A stretch of DNA of 64,000 nt from an uncultured Verrucomicrobiae bacterium (GTDB lineage Bacteria; Verrucomicrobiota; Verrucomicrobiia; Limisphaerales; Palsa-1400), in NCBI GenBank assembly GCA_963702845.1, contig OY969763.1, positions 4,224,001 to 4,288,000 of the forward strand, in the 5' to 3' direction. The notes beneath the pieces are model-generated. The model was given only the letters and a program-made list of their open reading frames with translations, was not told where the DNA came from and did no database searches. Position numbers and translations under genes: made by a program. Each line of letters opens with the position of its first letter. The stretch's first letter is position 1. This document shows positions 1 through 41,864 of the stretch, piece after piece.

Positions 1-1290
1 CCCTCGCGCTGCTCGGTGAGCACTTGGTCGACATGCACGGACCGCACGAGCATCAATCGTTGTTGCGACAACGCAGTCAGTTGGATGCGTTTGGATGGAT
101 TTGCCGGACTGTTGCCATTGCGCAAGGAATTCGAGTCGGCGGCCCGTTTATGCCGCACGATCGAAGGGGACAAGTCCACCTTGATCGTCGACGAGCAAAC
201 TTACGCGCAGCAACTGGATCTTCTTCGATTTCAAACGAACGAAATCAGCGCTGCGCGTTTGGAGCCCGGTGAAGGAGCGGAAGTCGAACAGGAGTTTCAA
301 CGGGCGAGCAATGCCGCGCGCCTTCTTGAACTTACCCAAGCCGCACTCGACGTCCTAAGCGAAGCGGATAACTCGCTGCTCACTCAATCTGCCGAGATCG
401 GCCGCAATCTTCAGGAACTGCAACGGATTGATTCCGGCGCGACTGAAGTGCTCGGCGCGCATGAACAAGTCACGTCGTCCTTGCGAGAACTCCAGGCGGC
501 ACTCGGCCATTACTCGGAACGCATTGACGTCGATCCCGCTCGCCTGCGCGAACTGGAAGCACGCGTCGACCTGTTGCACAGCCTGAAACGGAAGTACGGC
601 CCGAAGCTCGAAGATGTGATTGCATTTGGCGAGTCAGCGAAACAGAAGCTGCAAAATCTGGAACAGCGCGATGTCGAACTGGAGCGCCTGAATTCGCAGT
701 TGATGAAAGCCAAGAAGGAAGTCTTGCGAATCGGGCGCGAGCTAACGGCTCAACGCAAAAAGGCCATACCGAAATTTGCCAAAGCGGTGACCAAACAGTT
801 GAACGATCTCGGCTTTGCACAAAGCCAATTTGACGTAGCGCTCACATCGGCCTCCGACGGCGAAGATGCCATTGAATTTCAGTTCGCGCCTAACCCTGGC
901 GAACCGCCCCGACCGCTTCGCGCGGTTGCCTCATCGGGAGAACTTTCTCGCGTGATGCTGGCGCTCAAAACAGTCCTGGCTTCCGAAGATCAAATCCCGG
1001 TGCTCGTATTTGATGAGATCGACGCGAACGTCGGCGGCGAAACCGCCGGTGTTGTCGGCGAAAAAATGTTACAGATTGCGCACACGCACCAGGTAATCTG
1101 CATCACGCACTTGCCACCGGTTGCTGCCACAGCTTCGACCCATTTTGTTGTCTCCAAACGCCAACACGAAGGTCGCACGATTTCGGAAATTCATCTTCTA
1201 GAACGCGCTCAACGTGTCAATGAAATCGCCCGCATGCTCGGTGGCCAAAGCGAAGCCGCGCGCAAACACGCGCAATCGCTGCTGGGTTAA
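1..1290 (+). CDS. recN: DNA repair protein RecN (5'-truncated by window edge; apparent frameshift near 90-110)
   Basis: C-terminal ABC signature VASSGELSRVMLALK, Walker B VLVFDEIDANVGG, ITHLP and EIARMLGG motifs; upstream frame reads LVDMHGPHEHQSLL. Confidence 0.93.
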   Translation, partial: PSRCSVSTWSTCTDRTSINRCCDNAVSWMRLDGFAGLLPLRKEFESAARLCRTIEGDKSTLIVDEQTYAQQLDLLRFQTNEISAARLEPGEGAEVEQEFQRASNAARLLELTQAALDVLSEADNSLLTQSAEIGRNLQELQRIDSGATEVLGAHEQVTSSLRELQAALGHYSERIDVDPARLRELEARVDLLHSLKRKYGPKLEDVIAFGESAKQKLQNLEQRDVELERLNSQLMKAKKEVLRIGRELTAQRKKAIPKFAKAVTKQLNDLGFAQSQFDVALTSASDGEDAIEFQFAPNPGEPPRPLRAVASSGELSRVMLALKTVLASEDQIPVLVFDEIDANVGGETAGVVGEKMLQIAHTHQVICITHLPPVAATASTHFVVSKRQHEGRTISEIHLLERAQRVNEIARMLGGQSEAARKHAQSLLG

Positions 1291-1437
1291 AAACTTATTA
1301 AAATGTTAATAAGTCCGGGCTTTTTTTGCGCAAAAACAAATGTGGTGGTTAAAAAGTGACAGCGCTGCGTGCGCGACTCTAACCATTTTTTAATCCCTCA
1401 GCTGCCTTCGCATTTTCTTCTAGGGGAAATCACGAGT

Positions 1438-1453
1438 TGGCATTGCCGGTGCT
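1438..1453 (+). promoter_or_regulatory. Putative sigma54 (-24/-12) promoter of glnK-amtB operon 1
   Basis: TGGCATTGCCGGTGCT = GG-N10-GC, 57 bp upstream of the P-II ATG. Confidence 0.6.
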
Positions 1454-1455
1454 AA

Positions 1456-1848
<393 letters not shown>

Positions 1849-1875
1849 CGCAAACCAAAAACTAAAACTACCAAG

Positions 1876-3720
1876 ATGAAGAAATATCTAGCACTCGCAA
1901 CGATTCTGGCTGGCTTAACCATCGGCGCATTCGCCCAAGCGCCGGCAGACACCAATGCCGCTCCACCCGCTGCCGCGCCAGCTTCAAATAACGACCCCGG
2001 CGGCGGCGCCACGGGAACGATTGGCGACGTCGGTGGCTCCGGCGGATCTTATAGTTATCCTGGGTTTCAAGTCAGTGCTCCTACGCCGCTAAGCGACGAC
2101 GACAAAAAGGACACGAATAAAGTCGCCGCGTTCAACGATGCCACTAAAGCTGCGGCAGATTATACGGCGCAAACCAAAGTTGAACCGCTCGCGGTGAAAC
2201 TGGCTGACGCAGTCGGTCACAACCGCATCTCGATCAACTTCGTCTGGGTGCTGATCACCGGCTTCATGGTCATGTTCATGCAAGCTGGTTTCGCGCTGGT
2301 TGAAACCGGTCTTTGCCGCGCCAAAAATGCCGCGCACGTCATGACGATGAACATGCTGATCTATCCGCTCGGCATGTTGGGTTTTTGGTTGTGCGGCTTT
2401 GCATTCATGTTCGGTGGCGTTGGTACGCCCGGCGCCGGAACGCTCGGTTCCTGCACGAGCTTGAACCATGAAGTCACCTGGACGCTGTTCGGAAAACCTT
2501 TCGGTATCATCGGTTGGAAAGGCTTCTGCCTCTCCGGTGATACCTACGATGTCGGTTTGTTCACCCTGTTCCTCTTCCAGATGGTGTTCATGGATACCAC
2601 TGCAACGATTCCCACTGGAGCAGCTGCAGAACGTTGGAAGTTCTCCTCCTTCTGCCTCTACGGCTGTTTCATCGGCACCGTTATGTATCCCTTATTCGGC
2701 AACTGGGTCTGGGGCGGCGGCTGGTTGTCGCAGCTCGGTGTGAATTTCGGTTTAGGCCACGGCCACGTGGATTTCGCAGGGTCATCAGTTGTTCACTTAC
2801 AAGGAGGTGTCATTGGATTGATCTTCGCGTGGCTGATCGGCCCTCGTCTCGGCAAATACAATAAAGACGGCAGCATCAACCCCATGCCGCCGCACAACAT
2901 TCCTTACGCGATTCTTGGCACGTTCATTCTCGCGTTCGGTTGGTTCGGATTTAATCCTGGTTCAACTCTCGCCGGCACGGACATGCGCATGGCCGTCGTT
3001 GCAGTGAACACGATGCTCGCTTCTGCCTCGGGTTGCATGGCGTCGGTTGTCTGGATGTGGTGGTTCCGCACCAAAAAACCAGATCCGAGCATGGCCTGTA
3101 ACGGCATGCTCGCCGGCCTGGTCGCGATCACTGCGCCTTGCGCATTCGTCACCGCCGGTGGCTCATTAATCATTGGGTTGATTTCCGGTATCCTTGTCGT
3201 CGAATCAGTCTTCTTCTTCGACAAAATCAAAATTGATGATCCGGTTGGCGCGATCTCCGTCCACGGAATCAACGGCGCTTGGGGTTGCCTCGCGCTTGGA
3301 TTGTTCAGTGACGGCACCTACGGGCAGGGCTGGAATGGTGTGCACTGGTTCAAATTGCTCGACGGCACCTACAAAATTCTGGATCCGTCCGCCGCACCGA
3401 AAGGTGCGATCGAACAAGGCATCCTCGGCACCTTCTACGGTGGCGGCATGAGCCAATTCTGGGCCGAATTCGTCGGCGTCCTCACTTGCTTCATCACACT
3501 GTCGATCCTGTCGCTGATTGTTTACGGACTTGTTGCTCTGATAACAAAGGGCCAGCGCGTTTCCCCCGAAATGGAATTGGACGGTTTGGACGTTCCGGAA
3601 ATGGGTGTCGCTGCTTACTCCGGTATCGTGATGGACAAACAATCTGAAACTCCGATGTCGAAAGGCTACGGATCGTCACCTCTACCAGCAAAAGCTCCGA
3701 AGGATTCGGTCAATGCTTGA
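1876..3720 (+). CDS. amtB: Ammonium transporter (copy 1) with long N-terminal extension after a signal peptide
   Basis: FMQAGFALVETG, DFAGSSVVH, WFGFNPGS, DDPVGAISVHG motifs. Confidence 0.95.
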   Translation: MKKYLALATILAGLTIGAFAQAPADTNAAPPAAAPASNNDPGGGATGTIGDVGGSGGSYSYPGFQVSAPTPLSDDDKKDTNKVAAFNDATKAAADYTAQTKVEPLAVKLADAVGHNRISINFVWVLITGFMVMFMQAGFALVETGLCRAKNAAHVMTMNMLIYPLGMLGFWLCGFAFMFGGVGTPGAGTLGSCTSLNHEVTWTLFGKPFGIIGWKGFCLSGDTYDVGLFTLFLFQMVFMDTTATIPTGAAAERWKFSSFCLYGCFIGTVMYPLFGNWVWGGGWLSQLGVNFGLGHGHVDFAGSSVVHLQGGVIGLIFAWLIGPRLGKYNKDGSINPMPPHNIPYAILGTFILAFGWFGFNPGSTLAGTDMRMAVVAVNTMLASASGCMASVVWMWWFRTKKPDPSMACNGMLAGLVAITAPCAFVTAGGSLIIGLISGILVVESVFFFDKIKIDDPVGAISVHGINGAWGCLALGLFSDGTYGQGWNGVHWFKLLDGTYKILDPSAAPKGAIEQGILGTFYGGGMSQFWAEFVGVLTCFITLSILSLIVYGLVALITKGQRVSPEMELDGLDVPEMGVAAYSGIVMDKQSETPMSKGYGSSPLPAKAPKDSVNA

Positions 3721-3736
3721 TTAACCACCCCACCCT

Positions 3737-3774
3737 CCCGGTTGCGCTAAGTAAAACCAAATGGCGCAACCGGG
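3737..3774 (+). terminator. Stem-loop after amtB1 (no U-tract; stabiliser or weak terminator)
   Basis: CCCGGTTGCGC...GCGCAACCGGG inverted repeat. Confidence 0.4.
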
Positions 3775-3794
3775 GTCTGGGGCGGAGGTAAAAT

Positions 3795-4118
3795 ATGAAA
3801 ATGTTTGAAATATTCCAAATGTTCGGCGCAACGATCGTGGGCGGCGCAATCGGTTGGGGATTCGGCCTGCTCCAACAAGCCGCCACCCGCCACAATGAAC
3901 GACTCCAAACCACCGGCAAACTTAACAAGGTCTGGTCGCTGATGCCCGGCTCGATGACGCGCGTCGCGTTTCTCCTGGTCGCGCTCGCACTCGTTCAGGT
4001 CGTTTGCCCGTTATTTTTCACGAGCACTGCGCAATGGGGTGTCTCGGCTGGCGTGATCGCCGGTTACGGCTGGACGCTGTATCAGAGCATGCGCGCGCGC
4101 CTCGCCGCCCGTGTTTAG
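3795..4118 (+). CDS. Hypothetical small membrane protein (about 3 TM segments)
   Basis: GGAGG RBS upstream, hydrophobic segments, co-oriented within operon. Confidence 0.7.
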
Positions 4119-4155
4119 TCCACTCCACTTTTTAACCTCAACAAAAACTACATTA

Positions 4156-4374
4156 ATGAGCACTCCAAAGAGTGTAATTGATAATGCAAAGAAACAGGGC
4201 GCGAAGATGGTCGACGTGAAGTTCGTCGACACCTTCGGCACCGCGTTCTTGTTGAAAGGCGACGTGTTCACTGCCGACTTTTTGGAGATGTGGATCAGCC
4301 ACAAACGCAAAGAGCACGACGCCCTGCGTTTGCGCCCACATCCCTACGAATTCTTCCTCTACTACGATGTGTAG
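4156..4374 (+). CDS. Mini glutamine-synthetase derivative (72 aa; GlnA residues 1-29 fused in frame to the last 43 residues); functional small protein or internally deleted pseudogene
   Basis: [29 protein letters not shown] + [43 protein letters not shown] match both termini of glnA at 10338-11751. Confidence 0.75.
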
Positions 4375-4397
4375 TTCGTAGTTCAGGCGGAGTGCTA

Positions 4398-4432
4398 AAC
4401 GCCCCGACGCTGTTCGTCGGGGCGTTTCTTTA
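4398..4432 (+). terminator. Rho-independent terminator after mini-glnA
   Basis: AACGCCCCGACG-CTGTT-CGTCGGGGCGTT followed by T-rich run. Confidence 0.8.
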
Positions 4433-4446
4433 ATTTAATACCCCCA

Positions 4447-5850
4447 ATGAATTACAGCGTTAGCCCCTGGATGATCCTGCCGTTCGGGCTGTTGCTCGGC
4501 ATGATCGCGCTCGCGCCATTGTTCTTCTCGAGCTGGTGGGGCAAACATTACATCAAAATCGCCGTCGGCCTCGCAGCGGTAATGGTCCTCTACTATTTCT
4601 TCGGCTTGGGCGCAAAAATGCGCATCGTCGAAACGGCGCACAATTACATCAGCTTCATCGTTTTTATCGGGGCACTGTTCGTTGTTTCCGGTGGAATTCA
4701 CATCCGGGTGAAAGGCGAAGCAACGCCGATGGCCAACGTGCTCTTCCTTGCCATCGGGGCACTGGTGGCAAACGCCCTCGGAACAACCGGCGCATCCATG
4801 TTGCTGATCCGGCCCTGGATTCGAATGAACCGCCATCGCATCACCGGCTATCATGTCGTGTTCTTCATCTTCATCGTCTCGAATGTCGGCGGCTGCCTGA
4901 CCCCTGTTGGCGATCCGCCGTTGTTCATTGGTTACCTCATGGGCGTGCCCTTCTGGTGGGTGACAAAGCAATGCTGGCCGATGTGGCTGACAGGCGTCGG
5001 CGTTCTCCTTGCGATGTTCTACGCGCTCGACCTGCGCAATTACAAACATGCCAGCAAAGACGTTCGCGATCATCTCACTGCCCACGAAGAATGGCGCTTC
5101 GACGGCTTGCGCAATTTGATTTTCCTCGCGGTCATTTTCGGCGCTGTCTTTATCGAACGCATTCCGTTCCTGCGCGAAGCCTTGATGCTTGGCGCCGCTG
5201 CGGCTTCGTACCATTACACTCACGACACCGTTCACGAATCCAACGAGTTCACCTTTCACCCGGTCAAAGAAGTTGCAGTTCTGTTCCTCGGGATCTTTGC
5301 CACAATGATGCCAGCACTCGATTGGTTGCAGGCAAATGCCCGGCTTTTCGGCACTCCGACACCAACATTGATGTATTTCGGCTCGGGCGCGCTCTCGAGT
5401 GTTTTGGATAATGCGCCCACCTACTGGAGTTTCTTGAGCGCTTCCATCGCAACTTTGGTGAGTCCGGAAACCGTGGCCGGTGTTAAATCGGTCATCGCCT
5501 CCGGCGGCACTCACGCAATGGCAGGTTCGGATGTCGCTCAAACGTTCGCGGTGTTGCAGAAATTTCATCCCGTTGAACTCGCTGCCAAAAACCTCACGAC
5601 CGAACACATCCAAGTCGCGAATCTGCTAGGGAACCCGTCGAGCAAGCTTTACGTCATCGCCGTGACCGTCGGCTCGGTCTTTTTCGGTGCGAACACTTAT
5701 ATCGGCAATGGCCCAAACTTCATGGTCAAAGCCATCGCCGACCAACAGAAAGTGACGACACCGGACTTCCTCAATTACATTTTCAAATACACGCTGCCCT
5801 TCATGGCCCCGATGTTGCTACTGGTCTGGTGGCTATTCTTCAGACAGTGA
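4447..5850 (+). CDS. Putative sodium:proton antiporter / ion-transporter (IT) superfamily membrane protein
   Basis: Multiple TM segments; GTTGAS, SNVGGCLTPVGDPPLF, LSSVLDNAPTY, GANTYIGNGPNFMVK motifs. Confidence 0.8.
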   Translation: MNYSVSPWMILPFGLLLGMIALAPLFFSSWWGKHYIKIAVGLAAVMVLYYFFGLGAKMRIVETAHNYISFIVFIGALFVVSGGIHIRVKGEATPMANVLFLAIGALVANALGTTGASMLLIRPWIRMNRHRITGYHVVFFIFIVSNVGGCLTPVGDPPLFIGYLMGVPFWWVTKQCWPMWLTGVGVLLAMFYALDLRNYKHASKDVRDHLTAHEEWRFDGLRNLIFLAVIFGAVFIERIPFLREALMLGAAAASYHYTHDTVHESNEFTFHPVKEVAVLFLGIFATMMPALDWLQANARLFGTPTPTLMYFGSGALSSVLDNAPTYWSFLSASIATLVSPETVAGVKSVIASGGTHAMAGSDVAQTFAVLQKFHPVELAAKNLTTEHIQVANLLGNPSSKLYVIAVTVGSVFFGANTYIGNGPNFMVKAIADQQKVTTPDFLNYIFKYTLPFMAPMLLLVWWLFFRQ

Positions 5851-5888
5851 AGCGGTGGCCGGTTTTCATGCCGTTCGCATCTGAAATC

Positions 5889-7433
5889 ATGAGTCGCAAC
5901 GGCGTGGCAGTTTCAAAAATGAAGCTGTTCACGCACGGGTCGGCAACGTCTCAATACGCTGCTGCGACGGCGGCGGTCGCGGCTGCAACTGCCGGTGGTT
6001 TTATTTTCAATCCACTGATCGGCCCGCATTCGACCGCATTTATTTTCCTCCTGTTCGTGGTTGCGCTCGCGCTGTTTCTTGGACGCGGCCCAACGCTGCT
6101 GGCAGCGACTCTTAGTGCCATTTCCTGGGACTTTTTCTTTCTGCCACCAGTTTTTGCATTTCGCATCACGCACCTGGAAGACGCGATTTTGCTGGCGATG
6201 TATTTCGTCGTGTCGGTCGTGCTCGGGCAACTCACCACACGAATCCGCCGACAGGAAGCGATCGAGCGACGCCGCGAGGAAAGGGTCACGGCATTGTTTC
6301 TGCTAGCTCGAGATCTCACCGAGTCGAAAGACATCAACGAAATGCTCGAGAACGCCGCCAGTCATATCGAAAAGACCTTCGATGCCAAAGCCGCCGTTCT
6401 TCTCCCCGACCGCACCCAAAGGTTGAAACGTTACCCGTATCCCGCGGGCGCATTCACCATCGACGATCGCGATCGCCAGGTCGCCGCGCACGTTTTTGCC
6501 CACGGCAAACCTGCCGGCAGTTTCACCCAAAACATGCCCGTCATTGCGGCGATGTTTGTTCCGCTCGCGACGAGCAATGAAACCCTCGGCGTGATGGGCC
6601 TGAAGTTTTCTGACCCACTCGGTCCGAGCACCAACCAGAAAATTTTACTCGAGGATTTCAATCAGCAGATTGCCACGTCACTCGCTCGTCTGCGCCTGCG
6701 TGAAGTTTCGGAAAAAACAAAACTGCTCACCGAATCAGAGCGTTTGAGCAAGACTCTGTTGAATTCCGTTTCGCACGAAATCCGCACGCCAATAGCGGCC
6801 ATTAAAAGCGCTGTCACCAATCTCGCCGAAATCAAAGACGCTCCTCTGTCAGAGTCCCAGAAACAAATGGTCGGCGAAATCCAGGAAGCCACCGAGCGGC
6901 TCGACCGCGTCGTTGGGAATGTTCTCGAAATCACGCGTCTGGAAGCCGGTCGCGTGCAACCAAAAATCAATTTGTGCGACGTGCGCGACTTGATTCAAGT
7001 CGCGTTGAAAGACGTGAAAAACAAAATGTCGGCGCACAAAATCACCGTCGCAATCACGCCGGATTTGCCACTCGTGCAATTGGATTTCGTTCTCACCCAA
7101 CAAGCGTTGCACAACCTGCTTTCCAATGCCGCATTTCACACGCCGCCGGGCACCGCGGTGAACGTCGGAGCCCGCGTCGATGGCACGTGGCTCTTACTTA
7201 CCATCGCCGACAACGGCCCGGGAATCCCGCCAGAATGTATCGCGCGAATTTTCGATAAATTTTATCGCGGCCCCAGCGCATTGGCTGGCGGAATCGGACT
7301 TGGCCTTTCAGTGACTGAAGGCCTGATTCTGGCGCAAAATGGCAATATTCAGGTCGAAAACCGGCCCGATGGCGGCGCACTTTTTACCATTCGTCTCCCA
7401 ATCAACCGCAGCGCTGCTGCAATCAAATCGTGA
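5889..7433 (+). CDS. KdpD-like sensor histidine kinase lacking the N-terminal KdpD/Usp domains (4TM + GAF + HisKA + HATPase)
   Basis: WDFFFLPP membrane motif, LLNSVSHEIRTP H-box, NLLSNA, DNGPGIP, GIGLGL; start codon uncertain. Confidence 0.85.
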   Translation: MSRNGVAVSKMKLFTHGSATSQYAAATAAVAAATAGGFIFNPLIGPHSTAFIFLLFVVALALFLGRGPTLLAATLSAISWDFFFLPPVFAFRITHLEDAILLAMYFVVSVVLGQLTTRIRRQEAIERRREERVTALFLLARDLTESKDINEMLENAASHIEKTFDAKAAVLLPDRTQRLKRYPYPAGAFTIDDRDRQVAAHVFAHGKPAGSFTQNMPVIAAMFVPLATSNETLGVMGLKFSDPLGPSTNQKILLEDFNQQIATSLARLRLREVSEKTKLLTESERLSKTLLNSVSHEIRTPIAAIKSAVTNLAEIKDAPLSESQKQMVGEIQEATERLDRVVGNVLEITRLEAGRVQPKINLCDVRDLIQVALKDVKNKMSAHKITVAITPDLPLVQLDFVLTQQALHNLLSNAAFHTPPGTAVNVGARVDGTWLLLTIADNGPGIPPECIARIFDKFYRGPSALAGGIGLGLSVTEGLILAQNGNIQVENRPDGGALFTIRLPINRSAAAIKS

Positions 7434-8143
7434 ACATCGAAACGCCCATCAAATCAAAGGTCCTCATCGTCGATGACGAATCGCAAATGCGCCGTTTGTT
7501 GCGCGTGTCGCTCGAGCGAAACGGGTATGAAGTGTCCGAAGCGTCCAACGGCAAACAAGCTCTGGCCGAAGCAGTGCGTACGCAACCGGACCTTGTCGTA
7601 CTCGACCTCGGTTTGCCGGACAGTGATGGCATTGAAGTTTTAAAACGTTTGCGCGAGTGGACGCAGGCACCAATCGTTATCGTCTCCGTTCGCTATCACG
7701 AAGACGAAAAGATCAACGCTCTCGACAATGGCGCCGACGATTACGTCACAAAACCTTTCGGCACACGTGAATTGCTCGCCAGGTTGCGCGTGGCCGAACG
7801 TCACCGGAAAATTTCCACCGCCACGACGTCGTTTCATGCCGGTGCACTTTCCGTCGATTTCGAAACGCGCACAGTCAAACGCGGTGATCAAAAAATCAAA
7901 CTGACCGCCACCGAATATTCAATTCTGCGCCTGTTCATTCAGCACGCCGGGAAAGTTCTGACTCACGGTCAAATCCTGCGCGCGATTTGGGGAACCGAAG
8001 ACATGGAAAAAACTGGTTACCTTCGGGTCTACATGGCTTACCTCCGCGAGAAACTCGAAGAGAATCCTTCCGAGCCAACGCTGCTCGTGACAGAGCCGGG
8101 CGTGGGCTATCGATTGGTCATCGACGACCCAGCTCCTCATTAA
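7430..8143 (+). CDS. KdpE-like OmpR-family response regulator
   Basis: LIVDDE, LDLGLPD, GADDYVTKPF, LRVYMAYLREKLE, LVTEPGVGYR. Confidence 0.88.
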   Translation: MNIETPIKSKVLIVDDESQMRRLLRVSLERNGYEVSEASNGKQALAEAVRTQPDLVVLDLGLPDSDGIEVLKRLREWTQAPIVIVSVRYHEDEKINALDNGADDYVTKPFGTRELLARLRVAERHRKISTATTSFHAGALSVDFETRTVKRGDQKIKLTATEYSILRLFIQHAGKVLTHGQILRAIWGTEDMEKTGYLRVYMAYLREKLEENPSEPTLLVTEPGVGYRLVIDDPAPH

Positions 8144-8319
8144 AAAGGTGTTAAAAAAACGACAGTTCAAATCGTTCCAATTGTCGTTTTTTGCTCACCG
8201 CGGGCTTTCACACATCTTCCCCGAAAAAAATTTCAAATAATTAAAATCTTATTAAAACCGCGCCAGACTTGGTTTTAATACGATTTTAACATCCACCGAA
8301 CCTCACTGGCACGGTCCAC

Positions 8320-8335
8320 TGGTACTCCGGTTGCT
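8320..8335 (+). promoter_or_regulatory. Putative sigma54 promoter of glnK-amtB-glnA operon 2
   Basis: TGGTACTCCGGTTGCT = GG-N10-GC with TTGC -12 element, upstream of P-II copy 2. Confidence 0.6.
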
Positions 8336-8365
8336 ATCCCTTCTTCAAAGGCTAAAGCTTTGTAA

Positions 8366-8710
<345 letters not shown>

Positions 8711-8743
8711 CCCTCAACCACAGACTTTCTACTAATCAACCAC

Positions 8744-10249
8744 ATGAAAAACCTTGTCCTGAGCCTAACCATTGTTTGCGCGATCCTGATGCACGCCGTG
8801 CCGTCGTTTGCGCAAGCACCTGCTGCTACCAACGCGCCTGCTGCACCTGCGCTGAAAGATCCCTCGCTTGAACAGCGCATCACAGATCTCGAGGCCTATA
8901 TCAACAACGGCGCGCGTGTGAACGCCGCGGTAACAAACATCTCCACGAAAGTCGGCGGGCCTGGCCCCGGCCACAATGCCTGGCAAATGGTTTGCACGGC
9001 GCTCGTATTGTTCATGACCCTGCCCGGCCTCGCCCTGTTCTATGGCGGCTTGGTTCGCAGGAAGAACGTGCTCTCTGTGCTCGCGCAATGCCTCGGCATC
9101 GCGGGATTGGTGACGATCCTTTGGTGGTTGTTCGGCTACAGCATGGCGTTTCATGCCGGTAAGCCTTACATGGGAACCTTCGACTGGGCGTTTCTCAAAG
9201 GCGTCGATTCGAATCCGAACACCGATTACAGCGCGTGGGTCTCGCACAACGTCTTCTCCATGTATCAACTGATGTTCGCGATCATCACACCCGCGCTGAT
9301 CATCGGCGCGATTGCCGAACGCATGAAGTTCTCCGCGATTCTCCTGTTCGTCACCCTCTGGATGGTCCTCATCTACTTCCCGCTCGCGCACATGGTATGG
9401 GGCGTCGACGGATTGATGAACGGCGTTTGGAATGCAGACGCGAAGATTAAAGCCATCGACTTCGCCGGCGGCACCGTCGTCCACATGTCCTCCGGTTGGT
9501 CAGCGTTGATCTTGTGCATGATCCTCGGCAAACGCCTCGGCTTCGGCAAAGAACCGATGCCGCCACACAGCATGGTGCTTTGTATGGTCGGCACGGGAAT
9601 GCTCTGGGTCGGTTGGTATGGATTTAATGCGGGCAGCGCCGTCGCTGCTGACGTCATCGCGGCGAACGCGTTCACCACGACAACGATTGCAACCGCCGTC
9701 GCCTCGTTCGCATGGGCGATGGCCGAATACATCTTGCGGGGCAAGCCGAGTATTCTCGGTTTTTGTTCCGGCGCTGTCGCCGGCCTGGTAGTGATTACGC
9801 CAGCGTGCGGGTTTGTTGATGTCTCCGGCTCGGTAATTATCGGGATCTGCGCCGGTGTCATTCCGTTCTTCTTCGTCACCAAAGTGAAAGGTTGGCTCGG
9901 CTACGATGACGCGCTCGACACCTTCGGTGTTCACGCCGTCGGCGGAACCATGGGCGCGTTACTTACTGGGTTTCTCGCGACTGACAAAGTGAACGGTAAC
10001 TTGAGCTTGATCGCTGACGCGGCCTCAGCCAATCCCGCCACCAAAAACGGCCTCGCCAAACTCGTCGCCAACGGCGGCCTTTGGGTCGAACAACTCAAGG
10101 CCATCGGCGTGACTCTCGCCATGGCAATTATCGGCACCGTCGTTATCGCCTACATCGTCAAAGCCACCATCGGCCTGCGCGTCAGCGATGAAGTTGAAAC
10201 TGTCGGCCTCGACCTCGCCGAACACGGCGAAGAAGGCTATCACGGATAA
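8744..10249 (+). CDS. amtB: Ammonium transporter (copy 2, AmtB-type)
   Basis: PGLALFYGGLVRRKN, DFAGGTVVH, GWYGFNAGS, YDDALDTFGVH, GLDLAEHGEEGY. Confidence 0.96.
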   Translation: MKNLVLSLTIVCAILMHAVPSFAQAPAATNAPAAPALKDPSLEQRITDLEAYINNGARVNAAVTNISTKVGGPGPGHNAWQMVCTALVLFMTLPGLALFYGGLVRRKNVLSVLAQCLGIAGLVTILWWLFGYSMAFHAGKPYMGTFDWAFLKGVDSNPNTDYSAWVSHNVFSMYQLMFAIITPALIIGAIAERMKFSAILLFVTLWMVLIYFPLAHMVWGVDGLMNGVWNADAKIKAIDFAGGTVVHMSSGWSALILCMILGKRLGFGKEPMPPHSMVLCMVGTGMLWVGWYGFNAGSAVAADVIAANAFTTTTIATAVASFAWAMAEYILRGKPSILGFCSGAVAGLVVITPACGFVDVSGSVIIGICAGVIPFFFVTKVKGWLGYDDALDTFGVHAVGGTMGALLTGFLATDKVNGNLSLIADAASANPATKNGLAKLVANGGLWVEQLKAIGVTLAMAIIGTVVIAYIVKATIGLRVSDEVETVGLDLAEHGEEGYHG

Positions 10250-10337
10250 TTCCACCGTAGCCCTAAAGGTAGGGCGCTCGCTTCCGCGCGCGCCCTACCT
10301 CGACGGGCGAAAGCGGAAAACAAAACAGACAAACAAC

Positions 10338-11751
10338 ATGAGCACTCCTAAAAGCGTAATTGATAGTGCGAAGAAACAGGGTGCGAAGATGGTTGACGTG
10401 AAGTTCGTCGATACCTTCGGCACCTGGCAACATTTCACAGTCCCGATGGGCGAACTGACCGAAGAAGTCTTCGAAGAAGGTTTCGGTTTCGATGGTTCCT
10501 CAATCCGCGGATGGAAATCGATCGAAGCCTCCGACATGCTCGCCATGCCTGACCCGGCGACCGCCTTCATCGATCCTTTCTGCGCTGTCCCGACTCTGTC
10601 GCTGACCTGCACCATTGCCGAAACAGGAACGAAGGAAGCTTACAATCGTGACCCTCGTGGCATCGCACAACGTGGTGAAGCCTATCTCAAATCCACCAAG
10701 ATCGCCGACACCGCAGTGTTTGGTCCCGAAGCTGAGTTCTTCATCTTCGACAACGTCCAATATGATTCCAAAGCCAACGGCACCTTCTACTCGGTCGATT
10801 CCGAAGAAGGCGATTTGGAACACCGGCCGCGATGAAATGCCGAACCTCGGCTACAAGATTCGCTACAAGGAAGGTTACTTCCCTGTCGCGCCGACCGACA
10901 CTCAGCAAGACATCCGCACCGAGATGTGTTTGGTCATGGAACAACTCGGGATCAAGGTGGAACGTCAACACCACGAAGTCGCCACTGCTGGTCAGGCTGA
11001 AATCGATTTTCGTTTCGATACGCTGGTCAAGACCGCCGACACGATGATGCTTTACAAATACATCATCAAGAACGTCGCACGGAAACACGGCAAGACCGTC
11101 ACCTTCATGCCCAAGCCGCTCTTCGGTGATAACGGTTCCGGCATGCACACGCATCAATCGTTGTGGTCCAAGGGTAAGCCGTTGTTCGCTGGTAAAGAAT
11201 ATGCCGGCTTGAGCCAGATGGCCCTGTACTACATCGGCGGCATTTTGAAGCACGCGAAAGCCCTGTGCGCGATCTGCAATCCGACGACGAACTCCTACAA
11301 ACGCTTGGTTCCTGGCTACGAAGCTCCGGTTAACCTCGCTTACAGCGCGCGTAATCGTTCCGCTGCGATTCGTATCCCGACCTTCAGCGAAAGCCCGAAA
11401 GCCAAGCGCATTGAGTATCGTCCGCCGGATCCGGCTGCGAACCCTTACCTCGCCTACACCGCCCTGCTCATGGCAGGTCTCGATGGCGTGTTGAACAAGA
11501 TTGAACCGGGCGAACCGCTGGACAAAAACATCTACGAACTGCCTCCGGAAGAACTGAAGAAGGTTCCGAATGTCCCCGGCAGCCTCGGCGAAGCGCTGGA
11601 TTGTTTGGAGAAGGACAATGCATTCCTGCTCAAGGGCGACGTATTCACCGCTGACTTCCTGGAAATGTGGATAACTCACAAGCGCAAGGAACATGATGCG
11701 CTGCGTTTGCGTCCGCATCCTTACGAATTCTTCCTCTACTACGATGTGTAG
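10338..11751 (+). CDS. glnA: Glutamine synthetase type I (one apparent frameshift near 10810)
   Basis: [63 protein letters not shown] across two frames. Confidence 0.95.
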
Positions 11752-11774
11752 TTCGTAGTTCAGGCGGAGTGCTA

Positions 11775-11811
11775 AACGCCCCGACGCTGTTCGTCGGGGC
11801 GTTATTTTTTT
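11775..11811 (+). terminator. Rho-independent terminator after glnA
   Basis: Same hairpin as at 4398 followed by ATTTTTTT. Confidence 0.85.
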
Positions 11812-12133
11812 ATGGATAAACGTGCGTTGTAATCGAGCAATGCGGCGGGTTCGTCACAGCATTGATGATGTATTTCCCCATTCCCGGACATTCCGGCATT
11901 TTGTTTTTCGGCAAATACGGCAGAAGTTGATCAACCGGCGGAACAGCATCGGGCGCTTGCTTATGGTCGTTCGTCCATTTCACTTTCGCGCGTTGAATTT
12001 CATCTAACTGGGCGTGGCAAATCTCTCGGGTCGGATCGTCTGTCGGTGGTGACTCGCCAGTGAACAAAAAAGATATTCCCCAAACCCCAAGCGCCAGCCC
12101 CACGATCAGCAGGTTGCGCGTGAGCTTGTCCAT
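11810..12133 (-). CDS. Hypothetical membrane-anchored protein (pilin-like C-terminus)
   Basis: N-terminal TM, C..L..I..AK..W and MPECP.G.Y...PHCS pattern; abuts lptE stop. Confidence 0.6.
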   Translation of the reverse strand: MDKLTRNLLIVGLALGVWGISFLFTGESPPTDDPTREICHAQLDEIQRAKVKWTNDHKQAPDAVPPVDQLLPYLPKNKMPECPGMGKYIINAVTNPPHCSITTHVYP

Positions 12134-12637
12134 TTACCAACTCCCATCAGCGAGACTGGAAATGGCATTGCGTGCTAAATCTTCAGCCAGGAGCGGCACG
12201 GCCTGGCGTTCGGCGGCGGCAAGGTCGGTCCCGACACGAACAGTGGTGCGGCCATAAAGGGTGCGATTCAAATTGGTTTTGCCGGTGGAACGTTCGACAG
12301 CGGTAATGTCGGCGAACATCGTTAAGGTGTAGTCCTGCGGAGTTAAAACGTCGGTGGGATTAGCGGCCAATTCGCTGCGGTCGAACCTTGTGATTTTTCC
12401 GCTGAGCACAATGTCGCCGGTCCCTTGGGTTTCAAGACGGAAGGTGCCTTCCTGTTGGATGCGCTTGCGCAATGACAAGCTCACGTAATCCGTCAGACGC
12501 GGCTCCAATGTCTCATTGCGAAACGTTTCAACCGACACTGACCTGCTCCCGGCAACATCGCCGTTGGTTGGCCCCAACCTGTATCCAGCGCAACCGCACA
12601 GGGCGGCGACCAGAACGAGTGAGAGCATCGCGCGCAT
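12134..12637 (-). CDS. lptE: LPS assembly lipoprotein LptE family
   Basis: Lipobox LCGC-AGYRLG, FRNETLEPRL, follows bamD. Confidence 0.75.
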   Translation of the reverse strand: MRAMLSLVLVAALCGCAGYRLGPTNGDVAGSRSVSVETFRNETLEPRLTDYVSLSLRKRIQQEGTFRLETQGTGDIVLSGKITRFDRSELAANPTDVLTPQDYTLTMFADITAVERSTGKTNLNRTLYGRTTVRVGTDLAAAERQAVPLLAEDLARNAISSLADGSW

Positions 12638-13654
12638 TTATTTCGGGTTGGTACTCGGCGCTGTCGTCCCTTCGGCGCCACTCGTTTTTTTCTTCAACGC
12701 TTCGATCCGTTGACGTGCCTGGGTGCCCATTGGTGAGTTCGCGTCGATCGCGTAAGCCGCGTTATAATAAATCCGCGCCGCTTCCCACTTATTTCCTTTT
12801 TCGTAATACTGCGCAATGCGGAAATTGCCGCGCGCTTCTTCAGACTTCAACGAGGCAATGCGCCGTTGCGCATCCGGCACACGCGGATCATCGTCGTAAA
12901 GCGCCATAAAATCCGTGAATGTGGCGATCGCTTTTCCGGCAACACTCTGGTCGTAATCCGCCGTGCGCGCTTCCTTCTGATATGCCAATCCGGCCTTGAA
13001 CGTCGCGTCGGCAGCGACCTGCCGTTGATCCGCGTAGCGGTCAGCCGCGCGTTCATACGCTTTCACTGCCAGCGGATATTCTTTCTGCTTTTCACGGGCC
13101 GCGCCGACGTCCATTTGCGCCTGCGGAGCAATCGGGCTATACGGACCGTTCTTCACCACCTTGTCGAACAATCCCGCCGTTTTTTCCCACGACCGATAGA
13201 GCGGAACGTAACCAAACAGCCGATAGAACTGCCCATTGAGATAACGCACTGCGATATCGAATTGCCGTTTTTGCACATCCTGGTAGTCCGTGAACTTCGG
13301 ATATTTTTCCAGCACTTCCTGGTAAGCCTTGAACGCCTTCTCATCCTTGTGCTGCGCTTCATAGCAACGCCCGATCAGATACTGCGCTTGCGGCGCAAAG
13401 TCCGAAAGCTTGCGCATCTTCACCGTTCGTTTGGCCGCTTTCATTGCGAGCCCGTAATCCTTTTTGTCGAACGCCTCCTGCGCGACCTGCAACTGTTCGC
13501 GCGCGCTTTGCCGCTGCCACTTGCCTTTTTCCTCACCGGGCCATTCATAGGTGAAACCTTCCCCCTGCCGATAAATCAAAGGCGCGGGCGAACGAAAAGG
13601 AAACGCGATCAACGCGAGTAATAACAGGACGATACGAAACAAACGGCCACGCAT
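12638..13654 (-). CDS. bamD: Outer membrane protein assembly factor BamD (TPR)
   Basis: TPR helices, DYDQS...AIATFTDF, RIAQYYEK...AARIYY. Confidence 0.8.
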   Translation of the reverse strand: MRGRLFRIVLLLLALIAFPFRSPAPLIYRQGEGFTYEWPGEEKGKWQRQSAREQLQVAQEAFDKKDYGLAMKAAKRTVKMRKLSDFAPQAQYLIGRCYEAQHKDEKAFKAYQEVLEKYPKFTDYQDVQKRQFDIAVRYLNGQFYRLFGYVPLYRSWEKTAGLFDKVVKNGPYSPIAPQAQMDVGAAREKQKEYPLAVKAYERAADRYADQRQVAADATFKAGLAYQKEARTADYDQSVAGKAIATFTDFMALYDDDPRVPDAQRRIASLKSEEARGNFRIAQYYEKGNKWEAARIYYNAAYAIDANSPMGTQARQRIEALKKKTSGAEGTTAPSTNPK

Positions 13655-41016: not shown

Positions 41017-41812
41017 TCATGTTTGTGATTTCGCATTCAACTTTCCTGCAACCTTACCACTCAACATCGACGGCGAACACTTCGCCAATCCCACCAGAAT
41101 CCGGTTCATCATTCCTGGAATAACAATCGGTTTACCATTCATCATCGCTCGATATCCGATTTCCGCCACCGTCTGCGCCGACATCGCTTTCATCATCCCG
41201 TGCCGCATCAACTTGCTTCGGTCCAAACCGGCGCGTTTATGAAATTCCGTCGCAGTGGTTCCCGGGCAGATCGCAGTCACCGTCACGCCAGAGTTCTTAA
41301 GTTCGACGCTCAGCGCCGCGGAAAACGAAAGAACAAACGCTTTGGTCGCGCCATAAACACCCAGCAGCGGATCAGGCTGATAGGCGGCGACGGAAGCGAC
41401 GTTCAAGATTTTCCCTTCACGACGCGCGAGCATTTGTTTCAGGAACAACTTGGTCAGTCACAACCACCGATTCCATATTCAACCGCAGCACCGCGATGTC
41501 CCTGTCCAACGCCGTGTCGGCAAACGCGCCATACACTCCAGAGCCCGCATTATTAATCAGCACTGAAACTGGAAAGTTTTCCCGCTGGAGCCGATCATAA
41601 ATCTGTCGTGGCGTTTCCACTTTCGCCAAATCCGCCACAATCACCTTAACGTCACGTCCAAATTTCTGTTTCAGTTCAGCCGCCACCGTGTTCAACCGCT
41701 GCTCGTCCCGCGCCACCAACGCCAGATCAAAACCATGCGTAGCGAGGATGTGCGCAAGCTCGTATCCGATTCCCGTCGAAGCTCCCGTGATCAGCACTGA
41801 TTTTGTTGTCAT
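41017..41812 (-). CDS. SDR family oxidoreductase (frameshift near 41460)
   Basis: ITGASTGIG, LINNAG, YGATKAFV. Confidence 0.88.
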
Positions 41813-41864
41813 AGCTGGATACTCAAACGCTATACTCAAGCGCGTATACTAACTAGGCCATTCT

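Follow-up and report, generated by a model that had tools for sequence, protein, structure and literature searches.

The genome of an uncultured Verrucomicrobiae bacterium (assembly GCA_963702845.1, contig OY969763.1) contains a 72-codon open reading frame, here called the mini-ORF, which consists of the two ends of the glutamine synthetase (GS) gene glnA and nothing in between. We consider it likely that the mini-ORF is what remained of a redundant GSI copy after a recent in-frame deletion, a selectively neutral leftover that is probably still transcribed. The analysis covered a stretch of 64,000 nt (positions 4,224,001 to 4,288,000 of the contig), which is referred to below as the window, together with the rest of the genome and its relatives. 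The evidence comes from the glnA gene that occupies the same position in a related genome, from the shared history of the glnA copies, and from similar remnants elsewhere. The features discussed are collected in Table 1.

Table 1. Features of the mini-ORF locus and of the other glutamine synthetase genes. Positions are those of the window unless a genome contig is named.
Feature	Position	Strand	Remarks
Sigma-54-like -24/-12 element upstream of operon 1 glnK	1438..1453	+	2 mismatches to the consensus
glnK (PII), first gene of operon 1	1510..1848	+	112 aa; 87% identity to second glnK
amtB, long form with N-terminal extension	1876..3720	+	614 aa; PF00909, 348.6 bits
orf107, hydrophobic membrane ORF	3795..4118	+	107 aa; no Pfam family
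Mini-ORF	4156..4374	+	72 aa plus stop
N segment of mini-ORF	4156..4242	+	glnA codons 1-29
C segment of mini-ORF	4243..4374	+	glnA codons 428-470 plus stop
Run shared by mini-ORF locus and full1	4345..4426 = 11722..11803	+	82 identical bases
Intrinsic-terminator-like hairpin and T-rich tail	4397..4437	+	stem-loop 4397..4427; 13 pairs, 9 G-C, loop of 5
CitMHS_2-family transporter, right edge of syntenic slot	4447..5850	+	467 aa; PF16980, 435 bits
full1, full-length GSI glnA after second glnK-amtB	10338..11751	+	one extra base at ~10809..12
Run shared by full1 and full2	11437..11600 = G000:C1:3402748..3402911		164 identical bases, near 3' end
full2, further full-length GSI glnA	G000:C1:3401646..3403062		behind intact glnK; missed by the initial annotation
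GSII-type glutamine synthetase, intact	G000:C1:3170878..3172059 (L008 1093..2274)		393 aa; PF03951 and PF00120 over cut-offs

Structure of the mini-ORF

Translation of the mini-ORF from its ATG start gives GlnA residues 1-29 joined in frame, with no linker, to the last 43 residues of the protein (AFLLKGD...FFLYYDV), as the initial annotation had described. The deletion junction falls between positions 4242 and 4243 (residues FGT/AFLL), and the stretch that is absent amounts to 398 codons, 30-427 of the 470-codon gene. The C half retrieves the glnA loci of its own genome at an E value of 1e-25 with 95% identity, while the N half matches the two full-length loci, full1 and full2, at 6e-12 and 3e-11 with 93% and 90% identity. 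The leader in front of the start codon is A-rich and also glnA-like. Judged by these matches, the mini-ORF is a descendant of a glnA gene. The start, stop and terminator with which it had been credited are all present, the terminator as a 13-pair hairpin. Inspection of the DNA of the mini-ORF and of full1 revealed no clear repeat, or microhomology, at the ends of the deletion.

Relative to the GSI GlnA paralogues, the retained residues 1-29 and 428-470 are nearly identical, with two residue differences to full1, whereas the loss of most of the protein means that the product cannot be an enzyme. The Pfam model of the N-terminal beta-grasp domain (PF03951) has no match in the mini-ORF, and that of the catalytic domain (PF00120) reaches 17.7 bits, below its 24-bit cut-off, and only over the last 34 of its 344 positions (311-344). 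The beta-grasp domain is thus mostly gone and the catalytic domain almost entirely, and therefore no glutamine synthesis is expected. The C-terminal 43 residues align to the C-terminus of GlnA and presumably correspond to the segment known as the thong in the enzymes of E. coli and Salmonella.

Ancestry of the locus

A homologue of orf107 is found in 10 of the 40 other genomes compared, always directly after a homologue of the long amtB. In eight of these ten the order is amtB-orf107-transporter with no glnA sequence in the spacer (G035 was counted in neither class). The remaining genome, G003, belongs to another genus of the same family, and there orf107 is followed by a glnA gene of at least 309 codons that runs to the end of the contig; a second G003 contig starts with the last 141 codons of glnA and continues into the transporter homologue. 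The two contigs appear to abut. Because G003 has glnA between the same neighbours, we infer that the slot once held a full-length gene and that the mini-ORF is its internally deleted descendant. Intact 470-codon glnA homologues are present in loci of 16 relatives. A clean deletion in another full glnA, which the initial annotation had offered as an alternative to its own preferred reading, is accordingly the account that we favour.

Paralogous copies, proposed gene conversion and frameshifts

Besides its GSI copies the genome has an intact GSII-type gene, and so the organism possesses a second class of GS. Identity between full1 and full2 is about 90% along most of the two genes. The 82-base run that the mini-ORF locus shares with full1 takes in the final 27 coding bases and the stop codon together with the 3' UTR and the terminator stem. 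The three GSI loci look like a mosaic in the alignments, and the shared runs can be read as gene conversion among paralogues, the 82-base tract being a recent event. The orf107-transporter spacers of the eight relatives contain a different hairpin, and G003 keeps this native hairpin after its glnA; because the native spacer hairpin differs, the terminator of the mini-ORF seems to have been copied from the full1 locus. The 164-base run common to full1 and full2 lies just upstream of the 82-base run.

Both full-length copies are frameshifted in the assembly, full1 by one extra base relative to four homologues and full2 by four, while the full1 orthologue of a genome of the same genus (G001) reads in one frame. 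Counting five in the full glnA copies and one in a short-chain dehydrogenase (SDR) gene, all six frameshifts are +1 insertions. Several of them sit where the paralogues differ and look as if both alleles had been placed side by side. A genome-wide load of indels was considered as the cause and rejected, since the genome has 165 stop-to-stop frames of at least 1000 aa and the neighbouring genes are intact. With moderate confidence, then, the glnA frameshifts are probably artefacts of consensus building or polishing, and the genes not pseudogenes. If the frameshifts were real, there would be no intact GSI partner for a peptide made from the mini-ORF, and the idea of a modulator, discussed below, would be weaker still.

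The dehydrogenase gene (41017..41836, minus strand) is split into two overlapping ORFs that match adh_short positions 1-118 and 119-190, and the split looks like the effect of one extra base near 41440.

These insertions bear on whether the mini-ORF itself might be a product of assembly, or a deletion variant present in a minority, so that its junction would not represent the main genome. Such an origin would be in keeping with the five +1 insertions in the two full glnA copies and the one in the SDR gene, with the tandem appearance of paralogue alleles at several of them, and with a completeness of 89.76% for a single contig of 6.03 Mb. Against this, the mini-ORF differs from the two full copies at 31 and 38 bases, and its unique flanks match the slot of the relatives on both sides, which a collapse of the other copies could not produce. 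Joining the N and C segments by mistake would moreover need shared sequence, of which there is none, and a genome with so many long open frames is not indel-ridden. We regard an artefact or minority variant as highly improbable.

Synonymous and non-synonymous differences

The N segment differs from full1 at 8 of its 87 bases, giving seven synonymous codons and one non-synonymous (S10N). The C segment has 23 base differences, all within its first 102 bases, with 20 synonymous codons and one non-synonymous (S versus T, codon 48). The sum, 27 synonymous codons and two residue changes, is exactly what had been estimated before.

At many of these sites the state in the mini-ORF is the one common to full-length genes of other genera, and it is full1 and full2 that are derived. 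In a comparison with homologous segments, 22 for N and 22 for C, the mini-ORF has just two base states of its own, AAT at codon 10 (the non-synonymous S10N) and CCA at codon 61 (synonymous), a count that is too low because third positions are near saturation. In a maximum likelihood tree, from an alignment in which the two segments of the mini-ORF were placed by hand on gap-free ends, the mini-ORF is sister to full1 plus full2 with a bootstrap value of 63 and a terminal branch of 0.106. Parsimony on this tree assigns seven synonymous changes and one non-synonymous change to the branch of the mini-ORF and nine synonymous changes to the stem of full1 and full2, and leaves 13 sites ambiguous; a non-synonymous flag at codon 33 is an artefact of single-base scoring within a Leu codon.

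On these counts the branch of the mini-ORF was mostly under purifying selection, and it includes the time that the sequence spent as a full-length gene. The synonymous excess is largely history shared with the full-length genes, which favours the earlier suggestion that the synonymous bias is older than the deletion. As a rough estimate, if non-synonymous sites outnumber synonymous ones about three to one and no more than two non-synonymous changes are seen, neutrality would allow only about two synonymous changes after the deletion; therefore either the deletion is recent or the peptide has been under selection. We favour a recent deletion, on the strength of other lines of evidence and not of the substitution data. 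If the deletion were old, the excess on the branch of the mini-ORF (at least seven synonymous changes versus one or two non-synonymous) would mean purifying selection on the peptide. The main value of the case lies in the warning that even a strong excess of synonymous differences from the parent gene is no proof that a fragment is under selection.

Uniqueness of the junction and other glnA remnants

The reading favoured by the initial annotation was that the mini-ORF encodes a catalytically dead modulator or inhibitor of GS. In its developed form, a micro-protein that combines the crown helix and the thong peptide would dock on GSI or GlnK and act as a dominant-negative modulator under nitrogen limitation, disturbing the stacking of hexamer rings or the docking of GlnK. 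Frame, start, stop and terminator are intact within a nitrogen operon, and the non-synonymous count is very low, all of which would suit a functional peptide. The structural premise, that the thong lies at ring-ring contacts, is in print: in the solved GS structures described in PMC10651883, the two hexamers touch through what are called thong interactions, and GlnK1 docks at a crown built by the N-terminal helices. Protein fragments can inhibit their parent proteins in bacteria, as in the engineered dominant-negative fragments of E. coli reported in PMC9245647.

The comparative evidence points the other way. Across 41 genomes, nothing but the mini-ORF itself gives a contiguous match over residues 1-72, and its junction, FGT/AFLL, was found nowhere else among 40 relatives, 30 genomes of the family and 400 of the order. 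No match better than a C-terminal-only one was obtained in any of the 30 other family genomes or the 400 other genomes of the order, in a search where fusions of short parts fall below the threshold. The two genomes of the same genus, 73% and 67% complete, lack the whole slot in their assemblies, so that the comparison of the junction rests on less close relatives. In a collection of 5.8 billion proteins the protein forms a cluster by itself, and a degenerate pattern of the junction had no matches in metagenome_contigs and genome_contigs, from which records of the genome itself were possibly excluded.

Remnants of a similar kind exist in relatives and are out of frame. One of them, on contig G002:C311 from the same genus, consists of the first 20 codons of glnA and, in a different frame, its last ~10 codons; the same 3' UTR and terminator come next. 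By its downstream flank (81% identity over 400 bases) this locus is the orthologue of full1. Since only 10 bases of the contig precede the ATG, the remnant could be an assembly product. On contig G022:C452, 50 N-terminal codons are followed by an out-of-frame middle fragment, again after amtB. One in three of the genome-resolved remnants is thus in frame, as expected by chance. These two remnants resemble the mini-ORF in parent gene, in type of lesion (the 5' end plus a later part) and in post-amtB position; they differ in that the mini-ORF is in frame and keeps an ORF of 72 codons.

A protein search with the mini-ORF returned 439 proteins at E <= 0.001, and 11 of the 120 listed were inspected, picked for coverage or long contigs. 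Three of these 11 join the two ends of GlnA in frame at other junctions: P0002 (N41+C38), P0041 (N57+C24) and P0071 (N24+C~31), the last with a second variant, P0121, that differs by two residues beside the junction. That such fusions recur in metagenomes could be counted in favour of a micro-protein, but each has a junction of its own, two stand alone in their clusters and the third shares its cluster with one other member; the junction pattern of P0071 had no matches in metagenome contigs. Nor do they show an excess of in-frame events, because a protein search finds in-frame fusions only. Residues 1-29, finally, are only part of the N-terminal domain, and their independent folding seems doubtful. 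With a junction that is unique, a synonymous history that is shared with full-length genes and out-of-frame remnants in relatives, we found no support for a modulator or inhibitor of GS and hold it to be unlikely.

Operon context

The genes glnK, amtB, orf107 and the mini-ORF form a co-oriented row, in which the mini-ORF is the fourth and last, 37 bases behind orf107. It does close the glnK-amtB operon 1, as had been noted, although orf107, previously unmentioned, intervenes. The sigma-54-like element in front of glnK is a candidate for the promoter from which the mini-ORF would be transcribed. Sigma-54-like matches in the window as a whole number 36 against a chance mean of 38.7; because this count is at chance level, only the position of the sites is suggestive. 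A similar element, at 8320..8335, stands directly before the second glnK. No sigma-70-like or sigma-54-like site was found between amtB and the mini-ORF.

The terminator hairpin ends 20 bases before the start codon of the transporter. A strong hairpin 20-50 bases ahead of the start of the CitMHS_2 transporter is seen both here and in the orf107-transporter spacers of relatives, and the transporter may rely on read-through of the hairpin or on a promoter within the upstream gene.

This arrangement invites an explanation at the RNA level, in which the glnA leader and the borrowed terminator would end the glnK-amtB-orf107 transcript and insulate the transporter, the open frame being incidental. 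The terminator is an exact copy of that of a full glnA and stands in place of the native hairpin of the eight relatives and G003, it ends close before the next start codon, and the region from amtB to the mini-ORF is free of promoter-like sites of the two types sought. A terminator, on the other hand, needs no open frame of 216 bases ahead of it, and a search of the first part of the window (1..13000) against Rfam at E <= 1 gave nothing at the mini-ORF or at the leaders or tails of glnA, and no element like a glutamine riboswitch. We think a role of this sort very unlikely. The same search matched Hammerhead_HH9 at 682..746 (plus strand), inside the first long ORF, at 24.2 bits (E 0.027), far below the gathering score of 52; this is most likely a chance match.

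Discussion

We propose the following sequence of events. The lineage would have kept two or three glnA copies that exchanged sequence by gene conversion, and spare copies would repeatedly have been lost through illegitimate internal deletions. A third GSI glnA, in the slot between orf107 and the transporter, would have lost codons 30-427 in one deletion, which stayed in frame by a one-in-three chance. The low number of non-synonymous differences would then date from the time when the gene was complete and working. What is left of it is probably co-transcribed with the operon and may be translated. What speaks against a mere remnant is that the ATG, the glnA-like leader, the frame and the terminator have all been kept, in the setting of a nitrogen operon.

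On this reading, the mini-ORF shows an unexceptional process at an early stage, the loss of the middle part of a redundant paralogue. The case documents the concerted evolution and repeated decay of a multi-copy glnA in a verrucomicrobial family, and it also flags assembly errors in paralogous genes.

A modulator, if it existed, would be a natural, genetically encoded inhibitor made from the interface segments of the enzyme itself and a directly testable case of a bacterial micro-protein. Small regulators of GS are known from several lineages. The cyanobacterial inactivating factors IF7 and IF17 are examples; like sP26 and GlnK1, they are not known to be related in sequence to GS, and they are conserved in their own lineages. 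The mini-ORF shares with these regulators a link to nitrogen metabolism and a small size, and differs from them in being pure GlnA sequence and unique to one genome. The statement of the initial annotation that small proteins regulate GS in other lineages is borne out by sP26 of Methanosarcina mazei (bioRxiv 10.1101/2020.05.06.080432) and by the GlnK1-GS complex (PMC10651883), as these sources describe them.

A further parallel is offered by the microProteins of plants and animals, described in PMC9638782 as small proteins, derived from paralogues, in which an interaction segment is retained and which titrate the complex of the parent. The mini-ORF likewise is small, derives from a larger oligomeric protein and lacks the functional domain, and it may keep interface segments of its parent, the thong and the crown; the evolutionary retention that characterizes microProteins is what it does not display. 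Limited word searches of the literature found neither a natural bacterial microProtein of GS nor an N+C mini-protein of GlnA. By analogy, sP26, IF7/IF17, microProteins and dominant-negative fragments may serve in principle as precedents for a modulator.

One could go a step further and suppose that in-frame N+C mini-proteins such as this one, P0002, P0041 and P0071/P0121 arise time and again from spare glnA copies in these Verrucomicrobia and are transiently kept as dominant-negative micro-proteins. A peptide made together with GlnK and AmtB when nitrogen is scarce would then cap GSI or GlnK and tune the assembly of the dodecamer. This would be a bacterial counterpart of the plant microProteins on a much-studied enzyme; we judge it distinctly unlikely.

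Finally, we note some observations on glnA 3' ends in the group. On many contigs from related genomes the final 16-40 codons of glnA come first or are all that is present of the gene (G006:C62/C110, G008:C137, G023:C45/C342, G034:C155/C174, G027:C251/C476 and G035:C233/C76), at contig starts where the coordinates show it; a near-identical glnA 3' end in multiple copies seems to break short-read assemblies in this group. On G018:C184 (L029) and G028:C59, the N and C matches to glnA are in different frames or too close together, which suggests that frameshifted or shortened glnA copies occur elsewhere in the family and order. Among the metagenome proteins inspected, P0014, P0030 and P0118 have the last ~40 residues of GlnA behind unrelated N-terminal sequence, which includes pieces resembling a receiver domain and a transporter; they could be rearrangements at the 3' end of glnA or chimeric assemblies.
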